Source: Escherichia coli 042 (lineage in GTDB: Bacteria > Pseudomonadota > Gammaproteobacteria > Enterobacterales > Enterobacteriaceae). From it: a stretch of 64,000 nucleotides of DNA. The position numbers are program-made. The stretch lies in NCBI RefSeq assembly GCF_000027125.1, contig NC_017626.1, one strand, 5' to 3'. Positions 48,001 through 51,000 of this stretch are shown here, one piece after another. Each line of letters opens with the position of its first letter. The first letter of the stretch is position 1.

Positions 48001-51000
48001 GCCACCGAGAAAACGGCTGACCAGTTCGGTCGGGTGATGGCATCCGCGCCGCGGTTTTCGGCAATAAATTCACTCATGGTGTTACCCGTGGCATGTTTCA
48101 GGGGAAAAGCCGACCACTTTAACATTGAAATGTGTGACGCATTTAACGTTTTTGCAACTTTTACGGTGTTGTGGGAAAAGTTCGAGGCTGCTCGAAGAAA
48201 TAAAAATCATAGGGCAAGGTGATATGCATTTTCGCGATTAGGTTGGGAATAAGGGATAAAGTATTGCACTTGGTGATATACTTTAATAACAGGATCTCAA
48301 CGATATGCGCGTGTTTAAAACCAAATGGTTTGCAAGGGAAGCCAGGTCTCATGCAATAACAGATGAAGAGTTGTGCCGGGACATTTTAGAAACGGAACAA
48401 GATAAAGCTGATGTACTTGGTGGTGGCTTTTTTAAAAAGCGCCTTCACAAAAATCGTGAGCGTGCAATTATTCTGGCGAAAGGGGGAAGCAATTGGTTTT
48501 ACACGTTTTTATATGCAAAACAGGATATGTCGAACATTAATAGTCAGGAACTGGCTGGGTTTCGTGAACTTGCAAAGCATTATGCCTTCCTGACGAAAGC
48601 CCAACTGACAGCAATGATTAACACTAAAGAACTGACAGAGATCTGCTATGACTGCAAAAACTAAATTTAAAAGTCCTGCATTTGAGGCTATTCACAGCGC
48701 AGCGGCTGGATTGTCCAGCGTCAATGCTATTTCTGCCGAAACGATGCGTACTTTTGACAAAGCCTGCCTGACCAGCGTGCAAGACTTACAACCTGTTGAG
48801 ATAAAAGCACTGCGGGAAAAATTAAAAGTGAGTCAGCCCGTCTTCGCTCACTATCTCAATACCAGCGTTTCAACTGTACAAAAATGGGAAAGTGGCGCTA
48901 AACGCCCCAATGGCATTTCATTAAAACTGCTCAGCATTGTGCAAAAACACGGGTTGGAGGTGCTGCTGTAAATAGAACGTAGATAATGCGTTCACCTACT
49001 GTCAGTTCCGATACCGGATGCGGCGTGAACGCCTTATCCACCCTACAGGTCAGGCGCGGTCTGTAGGCTGATAAGACGAAGCGGTTTTAATGCAGCCAGT
49101 GAACACCCTCGGCAGGCTGAAAGAACGCGTTATAGCGCATCTGAAAAGCATTAATATCCTGCATTTCAGGTTCGGTTTCGCGCAGAAAACCCAGCGCCAG
49201 CCTGACCTGAGCATCGGTAATCGGCGCGGCAAGACGGGCTTTTTGTAAAATCCGATGCCATTGCAGCAGGTTCTGTTCGCTACCATCGACAATGACAATT
49301 TGCCAGATAAACAACACCTGCGCGGCGTTTTGCAGGTGCGACTCATCCGGGCGATGCAAATAACGTAAAAATTCGTCACCGGCTGACTTTCCCATTTGAT
49401 CGACCATCGACTCCACGGGTACGACATCGATGTTCAGCCGATCGCTGAGACGGCGAATCGCTTTTCTGGCCCCGGATGTCAGCACCCGAAAACCAACCAC
49501 AAACACTACCGCCAGCGTGGCGAGCATTATCCAGATCATGAGTTCTCCTGCGTAATCAGAACTCATGATATCTGGAAACCCTCGCCAGTTACTAATCCAC
49601 CAGAATAATCTTCAGTGCAAACAGAGCTGCGACCACCACCACACACAGGTTCAGATCGCGCCAGCGCCCGGTGCATACTTTCATGATGCAGTACGACATA
49701 AAGCCAAGTGCAATCCCTTCGGTGATCGAGAAAGTAAAGGGCATCATCACCGTGGTAATAAACGCAGGCACCGATTCGGTAAAATCATCCCAGTTAACGC
49801 GCGCCAGGCTCGAAGTCATCAGCACGCCAACAAAGATTAACGCTCCGGCGGTTGCGTAAGGAGGAACCATCGCCACCAGCGGTGAGAAGAACATAACCAA
49901 CAGGAACATAACGCCGACCACAACCGCAGTCAGCCCCGTGCGACCACCGACCGCCACACCAGAAGTACTTTCAATATAGGCAGTAACAGATGAGGTACCA
50001 ATAAATGCGCCTGCCACCGAACTGACGCTATCAACATACAGCGCCTTATTCATATTGGGGAATTGACCGTTACTATCTATTAAGCCAGCTTTATCAGTTA
50101 CACCAATTAATGTTCCTGATGAATCAAATAGGTTAATCAGCATAAAGGAGAAAATGATACCGGCGAGTTCAAGTGTTAACGCGCCGCTCAAATCTACTTC
50201 ACCAATGACGCCGCTAATATCAGGCGGAATGGAATAGACACCGCTAAAATGAACATCACCGAAAAATAAGCCACAGCAAGACGTCACCACAATAGAAACC
50301 AGCACCGCGGCATGAAAATGACGTGATGACAACACGGTTATAATAAAAAACCCTAAAATACCTAACAACACGCCGTGAGAACTTAAATCGCCAATCATCA
50401 CCAGGGTGTCTTTATTGGCGACAATAACGCCAGTATTTTTTAATCCCATTAAGGCGATAAATAATCCGATTCCGCTGGTGATACCAATACGTAAACTTAA
50501 TGGAATGTTGGAGATCATCCAGTACCGGATACGAAACAGCGTGAGCAAAAATAGCCCAATTGCGCCCCAGAATATCGCGCCCATCCCGGTCTGCCAGGAG
50601 ATACCCATCGCCCCCACGACCACGAACGCAAAGAAGGCGTTCAGCCCCATTGCCGGAGCCAGCGCCACGGGTAAGTTAGCAAATATCCCCATCGCAATAC
50701 TGCCGATACCGGCAATCAAACAGGTGGTAACAAACACCACTTTCGGGTCCATTTGTGCCGCGCCGAGGATTTGCGGGTTCACAAAAACGATGTACACCAT
50801 GGTTAAAAAAGTGGTCATCCCCGCAATCAATTCTGTGCGGACGGTGGTCCCATGCTGAGGTAGTTTAAATAATCGCGAAAGCGTCCCTGATTCATTACTC
50901 ACGTAATCGGTATTGTCATTATTCATTTTTTTGTCCATTGGAGGAGATTTAATCCCTTGCTTTTGTAAAACAAATGACAACAACGGTTCAGTGATAATTA

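Follow-up and report, generated by a model that had tools for sequence, protein, structure and literature searches.

The closest characterized system to the gene pair analysed here was found by a tblastn search of plasmids and is ToxP/AntitoxP (CBUA0028/CBUA0027) of Coxiella burnetii plasmid QpH1. The pair lies between nepI and yicN in a 64,000-nucleotide (nt) stretch of Escherichia coli 042 (contig NC_017626.1), hereafter the window, and is very probably a chromosomal type II toxin-antitoxin (TA) operon of the HigB-2/HigA-2 (ToxP/AntitoxP) kind. The toxicity of ToxP is rescued by its antitoxin and cell-free translation is inhibited by the toxin (Wachter et al. 2022; PMC10098735). AntitoxP binds ToxP, the promoter is bound by AntitoxP as well as by its complex with ToxP, and binding of AntitoxP to the Coxiella promoter, PtoxP, was seen in electrophoretic mobility shift assays (PMC10098735). 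The E. coli pair resembles this system in its toxin-first order, its overlapping genes and a toxin that covers the full length of PF06296, C-terminal extension included. The PF06296 score of ToxP is 165 bits. Along the whole length it has 30% identity with the E. coli toxin (E 5e-16), and the two antitoxins share 55% identity over 104 amino acids (aa), N-terminal region included (E 4e-37). The recognition helices are almost the same, NTSVSTVQKWE in E. coli 042 and NTSVSTVKQWE in Coxiella, and a CAC-N3-GTGATA palindrome is placed over the −10 element in both. Nevertheless, the Coxiella pair is plasmid-borne and needed for plasmid maintenance and growth, whereas the E. coli pair is chromosomal and dispensable, and the longer basic β2-β3 loop of ToxP, GKGKRGG, is absent from the E. 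coli toxin.

The second reference system is HigB-2/HigA-2 of Vibrio cholerae (VCA0468/VCA0469; PDB 5JA8, 5JA9, 5JAA, 8A0X; PMC5416850, PMC11006873), whose toxin belongs to the same Pfam family, has its active-site residues in common with the E. coli toxin and, together with the helix-turn-helix (HTH) of its antitoxin, gives the best structural match. The operator mapped for HigA2 (PMC11006873) and the one predicted for the E. coli pair are each a single inverted repeat across the −10 element. VcHigB2 is, however, only about 20% identical to the E. coli toxin, lacks its C-terminal extension of approximately 25 residues and carries a basic loop that is long. The HigA2 N-terminus is disordered and acquires a helix and a strand on binding, whereas two helices are predicted in that of the E. 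coli antitoxin. The operator sequences also differ, TGTACGC-N5-GCGTACA for HigA2 against TAGCAC-N3-GTGCTA for the family of the E. coli pair, as do the base-contacting residues, Arg68, Glu71, Asn72 and Arg77 in HigA2 against Ser75, Gln78, Lys79 and Ala84 in the E. coli antitoxin.

Bicistronic 'relE-yiaG' modules have been described by sequence and structure modelling (Gerdes 2025, mBio, PMC11980606). Like the E. coli pair, they join a toxin of PF06296 to an HTH antitoxin that resembles YiaG/HigA2, and in the models two N-terminal antitoxin helices would likewise face the C-terminal helices of the toxin; that work stresses a subfamily with extended disordered toxin N-termini, which the E. coli toxin does not have. 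K-12 HigBA (YgjN/YgjM), Proteus Rts1 HigBA and Salmonella SehAB resemble the E. coli pair in that the toxin gene comes first and that a toxin of the RelE superfamily is combined with an HTH antitoxin, but their toxins belong to PF09907/PF05015 and their antitoxins, longer (138-142 aa) and of HigA type, have another dimer architecture (PMC5416850, PMC7160566). SehAB was considered as an orthologue and rejected; it is a different family, since SehB has 142 aa and is 46% identical to K-12 HigA (PMC7160566), and SehA has been reported as an inhibitor of RNase III, not an mRNA cleaver (PMC12817084). The 'HigBA2' of Acinetobacter baumannii, of the GP49-domain family, is too distant to be useful.

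Family, fold and pairing of the toxin and antitoxin

The two genes and the elements that define their starts are the following.

48305-48664, + strand: toxin gene, 119 aa, PF06296 (HigB-2/ToxP) RelE-fold family
48648-48971, + strand: antitoxin gene, 107 aa, N-terminal region of about residues 1-45 and XRE-type HTH at residues 46-102
48648-48664, + strand: overlap of both genes, 17 nt, ATGACTGCAAAAACTAA
48291-48294, + strand: Shine-Dalgarno sequence AGGA, 10 nt 5′ of the toxin ATG

The preliminary description of this DNA, made from the sequence alone, had given the two reading frames and their 17-bp overlap exactly. It had also taken them for a HigB/HigA-type module; the toxin-first type II TA character holds, specifically as HigB-2/HigA-2 (PF06296 plus XRE-HTH), but not as the Proteus/K-12 HigBA kind, and classical HigBA (Proteus Rts1, K-12 YgjNM) was ruled out as the toxin has no PF05015 or PF09907 match. 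The profile search suggested as a check of that assignment placed the toxin in PF06296 at 129.8 bits (cut-off 27, E 8e-38), residues 1-113 aligning with positions 1-120 of the 120 of the profile; this was its sole Pfam match, no other toxin family appearing at E ≤ 1. The genes are already annotated in public genomes, where RefSeq labels those of E. coli 'type II toxin-antitoxin system RelE/ParE family toxin' and 'helix-turn-helix domain-containing protein', and the kind of system is already known. Calculated isoelectric points are 9.0 for the toxin and 9.7 for the antitoxin. The RefSeq/PGAP annotation starts the toxin at GTG 48311 (117 aa) instead of ATG 48305 (119 aa). The longer form is better supported, because toxin homologues from many genera begin with MR[VI]FKT and the AGGA sequence stands 10 nt before the ATG; upstream of the gene the ACAGGATG motif is kept in other Enterobacterales.

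V. cholerae HigB-2 is in PF06296 as well, at 34.5 bits (the query sequence was checked and is identical to PDB chain 5ja9_C). A direct sequence search of the PDB with the E. coli toxin returned nothing even at E ≤ 10, and hence the Pfam profile and a fold search were needed to link the two toxins. An AlphaFold2 model built from 37 homologues (predicted local distance difference test, pLDDT, 85; predicted template modelling score 0.80) has the RelE/BECR fold, with helices at the N-terminus, an antiparallel sheet and a helix at the C-terminus. When this model was compared with the PDB by Foldseek, the 11 best matches were VcHigB2 chains (probability 0.96-1.0, template modelling (TM) score 0.5-0.6), followed by Mycobacterium tuberculosis HigB1, Cami1 and YoeB, RelE-fold ribosome-dependent RNases. 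The long basic β2-β3 loop is missing. The C-terminal extension, at about residues 95-119, is modelled as a helix (98-106) and a strand (110-115); it carries the motif ELxEIC, and Glu112 is kept in 207 and Cys114 in 174 of 225 distinct family members.

The active site of VcHigB2 was located by mutagenesis at Arg51, Arg64, Tyr82 and Lys84 (PMC5416850), and Lys49 was added later (PMC10098735). VcHigB2 Lys49, Arg51, Arg64, Tyr82 and Lys84 align with Lys44, Arg46, Arg53, Tyr70 and Lys72 of the E. coli toxin. Among the same 225 members, Lys44 and Arg53 are each present in 223, Lys72 in 217 and Arg46 in 216, and position 70 is Tyr in 148 and Phe in 69. Ribosome-dependent mRNA cleavage or growth arrest is known for the homologues VcHigB2 (PMC5416850) and ToxP (PMC10098735). 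Toxicity, neutralization, DNA binding and mRNA cleavage would thus be expected of the E. coli pair by homology.

The C-terminal HTH seen in the preliminary description corresponds to an HTH_3 domain at residues 52-96 of the antitoxin (33 bits, cut-off 23). Residues 46-102 match VcHigA-2 (5jaa_A) with a phmmer E of 8e-10, and the model of this domain superimposes on HigA2 (5j9i) in Foldseek with a TM score of 0.80-0.84, a root-mean-square deviation of 1.0-1.5 Å and 40% identity. The N-terminus is strongly conserved inside the subfamily; it has no detectable sequence similarity to the disordered N-terminal region of HigA2. In an AlphaFold2 model of toxin and antitoxin fused by a linker, antitoxin residues 10-24 and 30-40 are predicted as helices (pLDDT about 90), in agreement with the published relE-yiaG model (PMC11980606). 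Three other assignments of the antitoxin were rejected. It scores 41 bits on TIGR03830 (cut-off 61.8) and 26 on PF15731 (cut-off 30) of MqsRA, with the HTH part alone aligning and an N-terminus without the zinc-binding CxxC pairs of MqsA; it is a homologue, not a member, of NadS (41.3 bits, cut-off 60), and likewise of the YiaG orthologues (29.1 bits on PRK10072, cut-off 110).

Pairing was analysed in 80 loci from bacterial contigs, one genome per species, plus one E. coli locus. It is strict: in all 81, from Gamma-, Beta- and Alphaproteobacteria, an antitoxin homologue follows the toxin homologue directly on the same strand. The overlap is 17 nt in 57 loci and 11-29 nt in the remaining ones, and an overlap of this kind points to translational coupling of the two genes. 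Between genera, the ratio of non-synonymous to synonymous substitution rates (dN/dS) amounts to 0.03-0.13 in the toxin gene and 0.02-0.12 in that of the antitoxin, and hence both genes are under purifying selection. Taking into account: (i) the PF06296 score; (ii) the purifying selection on both genes, and (iii) the adjacency in 81 of 81 loci, the pair is far beyond chance.

In three species of the sample the toxin reading frame is truncated and the antitoxin is full length: Mixta theicola (44 aa; locus L017, 2538-2672), Lonsdalea quercina (63 aa; L035, 4001-4192) and Winslowiella iniecta (80 aa; L055, 1188-1430). A truncated toxin beside an intact antitoxin is the usual pattern of TA-module decay.

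Predicted operator and proposed mode of action

Upstream of the toxin gene, the palindrome and the promoter element coincide.

48257-48285, + strand: imperfect palindrome TAAAGTATTGCAC-TTG-GTGATATACTTTA, an inverted repeat that encloses the operator core
48264-48278, + strand: predicted operator core TTGCACTTGGTGATA, family palindrome TAGCAC-N3-GTGCTA
48274-48282, + strand: predicted extended −10 element TGaTATACT, overlapping the right half of the operator; its −35 element is weak

TAGCAC-N3-GTGCTA is present upstream of the toxin, with at most two mismatches, in all 70 unique loci (exact in 43), usually 25-28 nt 5′ of the toxin start codon, against a background of one match in 441 kb of flanking DNA. 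The extended −10, TGnTATAnT, is also kept in homologous loci and overlaps the right half of the palindrome. PtoxP of Coxiella reads TTGACA-17-TATAGT, and GTTCACTTAGTGATA occupies the corresponding position there. A generic scan for sigma-70 promoters and terminators detected neither a terminator nor a promoter upstream of the toxin; the toxin promoter was missed because its −35 element is poor, and it was recognized by comparison of homologous loci. The palindrome and its conservation are observed, and its position over the promoter is as would be predicted for an operator serving autoregulation. TAGCAC-N3-GTGCTA over an extended −10 is a testable regulatory prediction for the whole subfamily, PtoxP included.

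A promoter-like site is found inside the toxin gene at 48444-48471 (+ strand), TTCACA-16-AATTAT with a TG, which could give an antitoxin-only transcript; one such internal site was found against 1.7 expected in shuffled sequence, that is, no excess.

We propose the following mode of action for the TA operon. A single promoter with the extended −10 would drive the toxin and then the antitoxin, with the 17-nt overlap coupling their translation. The antitoxin, dimerized via its C-terminal XRE-HTH, would bind the palindrome over the −10 and repress the operon, while its conserved N-terminal residues, about 45, would bind and neutralize the toxin. Upon depletion of the antitoxin, the free RelE-fold toxin would enter the ribosomal A site and cut translated mRNA by means of Lys44, Arg46, Arg53, Tyr70 and Lys72, leading to arrest of translation and growth.

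Several points weigh against this assignment. We found no experiment on this E. coli pair in the literature. The identity of the toxin to the two characterized toxins is low (about 20% to VcHigB2, 30% to ToxP), its C-terminal extension is missing in VcHigB2 and the N-terminus of the antitoxin is unlike that of HigA2. RelE-fold toxins are not always RNases, as with SehA (PMC12817084) and ParE. The operator of the 042 allele is two mismatches off the consensus, and three rare substitutions of the 042 toxin, A26D, G33D and V42F, hit conserved family positions (Ala in 189, Gly in 211 and Val in 206 of the 225 members); both the operator and the substitutions could mean a weakened system.

Because of the C-terminal extension and the dissimilar antitoxin N-terminus, the mode of neutralization may differ from that of HigA2. 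We tentatively put forward, as a possibility that we hold to be rather less than even, that the core of PF06296, to which the toxins of E. coli and other Enterobacterales and Coxiella ToxP belong, uses a neutralization and regulation unlike those of V. cholerae HigBA2, in which the toxin extension (98-106, 110-115, ELxEIC) and the two conserved N-terminal antitoxin helices would replace 'β-strand sliding' by a helix and a strand, and that, separately, the 042 lineage is weakening its toxin through A26D, G33D and V42F.

The 042 toxin allele and other possible functions

In protein sequence the toxin equals CBG36840.1 of enteroaggregative E. coli (EAEC) 042, and it is present on about 110 contigs. 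Compared with the nearest other allele, that of strain 2012C-4221, there are four differences across the 961-bp intergenic region, and three of them are the non-synonymous toxin changes A26D, G33D and V42F (48381, 48402 and 48428); there are no synonymous toxin changes. Within Escherichia the dN/dS of the toxin is 0.22-0.53, higher than the 0.03-0.13 found elsewhere. Such clustered changes and raised dN/dS fit, but do not prove, either a loosening of the constraint on the toxin or selection for a weaker one.

This brings forward the strongest of the alternatives, a decaying or domesticated module in which the 042-type toxin would be weakened or inactive and the antitoxin would persist chiefly for autoregulation or for anti-addiction against related toxins borne by plasmids. 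We consider it unlikely. It would account for three amino acid changes without a silent one within toxin codons 26-42, at positions conserved in the family, and for the raised dN/dS; truncated toxins with intact antitoxins do exist in other species (L017, L035 and L055), and loss of the pair from two thirds of E. coli has had no obvious cost. However, the reading frame of the 042 toxin and all five catalytic residues are intact, its model is confident, the antitoxin and the operator have been retained, and V42F is a conservative change.

A main role in phage defence by abortive infection, which would be compatible with the TA mechanism, is improbable. There is a general precedent in TA modules of the RelE/ParE family (PMC11980606). 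In PADLOC-DB 2.0, however, the toxin had no match and the antitoxin gave generic HTH similarities only; the pair is not surrounded by a defence island, its neighbours being nepI, yicN, adeQ and adeD, and no true phage-borne copies of it were found.

Still less probable is a toxin mechanism other than ribosome-dependent mRNA cleavage, either inhibition of an enzyme, as in SehA/RNase III, or gyrase poisoning, as in ParE. The fold alone leaves the target unfixed (PMC12817084, PMC11980606), and the conserved C-terminal extension with Glu112 and Cys114 is specific to the family. Yet the basic active-site residues of RelE/HigB2 type are nearly invariant, the homologue ToxP blocks cell-free translation (PMC10098735), and SehAB is of a different family, as indicated above. 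Ribosome-dependent cleavage of mRNA is the most likely mechanism of the toxin.

Ancestry of the locus and neighbouring elements

The following elements delimit the locus.

46893-48083, − strand: nepI, left neighbour of the pair
48172-49011, no strand: 840-bp segment present in 1716 of 5426 E. coli genomes, replaced by a 41-bp filler in K-12-type genomes
48389-48407, + strand: stretch of the toxin gene (codons 29-35) of which a remnant, 17 of 19 nt, lies inside the 41-bp filler
48979-49041, no strand: hairpin of repetitive extragenic palindromic (REP) type, an inverted repeat directly 3′ of the antitoxin stop codon
49012-49085, no strand: resident REP pair, like a bacterial interspersed mosaic element (BIME), separating the module from the 3′ end of yicN, outside the module
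49087-49539, − strand: yicN, right neighbour of the pair, with adeQ and adeD beyond

Of 5426 complete E. coli genomes, 1716 contain the pair; it is missing from K-12 MG1655 and W3110, in line with the preliminary description as regards K-12. The occupied and empty alleles were compared with a long-gap aligner. The filler of the empty allele holds a remnant that corresponds to codons 29-35 of the toxin gene in its common E. coli form; the match scores 15, which 2 of 2000 shuffles reached, against a shuffle mean of 9.1. Therefore, the empty state is a deletion. The same filler is found in an A-group (K-12-like) strain and in a phylogroup-B2 strain without the pair, and hence one deletion allele is common to different backgrounds: about two thirds of E. 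coli, K-12 included, carry this single shared allele.

The arrangement nepI-toxin-antitoxin-yicN is also present in Klebsiella pneumoniae, K. oxytoca, K. michiganensis, K. grimontii and K. indica, and in Citrobacter amalonaticus, another Enterobacteriaceae genome and two divergent Escherichia genomes; in K. spallanzanii, where the locus begins at the toxin gene, the yicN side of it is seen. The module is ancestral at nepI-yicN in the Enterobacteriaceae rather than recently inserted. This corrects the direction of the event, the reference strain carrying a deletion scar, and an ancestral pair bears on the debate on whether TA modules of chromosomes have arrived as selfish newcomers or have long been resident. 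It also adds to the E. coli inventory a widespread TA locus, uncharacterized as far as our literature search showed, that about one third of complete genomes carry, including sequence type 131 (ST131), O157:H7 and EAEC 042, and that the K-12 reference does not.

Beside nepI, at the place occupied by yicS-nlpA in K-12, the window has a reading frame of 3806 aa (35271-46691, − strand) with immunoglobulin-like repeats of about 100 aa, for which matching genomes give the annotation inverse autotransporter adhesin IatC/EaeX/Air. An iatC/air gene is beside nepI in 746 of the 5426 complete genomes, and the TA pair was present in 9 of the 9 of these that were sampled. Some 970 genomes, ST131 and O157:H7 among them, carry the pair without iatC/air, and therefore it is not tied to this island. 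The least tenable reading, a recently acquired accessory insertion with REP elements that stabilizes the iatC/air island from its border, which builds on the small accessory insertion advanced in the preliminary description along with a comparison across E. coli genomes to check it, is largely refuted: it would suit the presence of the pair in some E. coli and not in others, and in every sampled iatC/air genome, but it is contradicted by the shared synteny in Klebsiella, Citrobacter and other Escherichia, the toxin remnant in the empty allele, the REP in both alleles and the pair-carrying genomes that lack iatC, and neither an integrase or transposase nor flanking direct repeats were found at the pair.

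The REP-like palindromes noticed after the pair are genuine. The sequence at 49008-49086 is a dispersed REP-type repeat, to which 5425 of the 5426 complete E. coli genomes have at least 40 matches each, and as in REP/BIME elements its copies are dispersed imperfect palindromes with predicted hairpins. They are not, as had been supposed, a part of the module, since the REP pair at 49012-49085 is present in occupied and empty alleles alike. The hairpin that follows the antitoxin stop spans this boundary, with its left arm (48979-48995) a partial inverted REP copy in the TA-specific segment and its right arm in the resident REP. Its RNA fold has a z of −2.7, and it is possibly a 3′ stabilizer of the mRNA or a terminator. 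Rfam naRNA4 (RF02564), a REP-derived nucleoid-associated RNA, matches 48978-49043 (− strand) at 32.9 bits (E 0.0012), below the gathering threshold of 59.5.

Plasmid copies of the pair are mostly from Rhizobiales, Coxiella and Legionella. Two groups of loci in the wider sample have peculiarities of their own. A metagenome-assembled genome labelled 'Collinsella sp.' has two contigs of about 1 kb (L003 and L043) with E. coli-like and Klebsiella-like copies of the pair; on L003 a 34-residue yicN fragment is identical in protein sequence to yicN of E. coli 042. These copies are most likely bin contamination. Ten species of Acetobacteraceae (loci L070-L079, at about 3977-4670), from Acetobacter, Gluconobacter, Gluconacetobacter, Acidomonas, Brytella and Endobacter, have identical match statistics (toxin 55.263%, antitoxin 60.377%) and de-duplication leaves a single upstream sequence and a single protein pair, which points to a recent horizontal spread on some mobile element.

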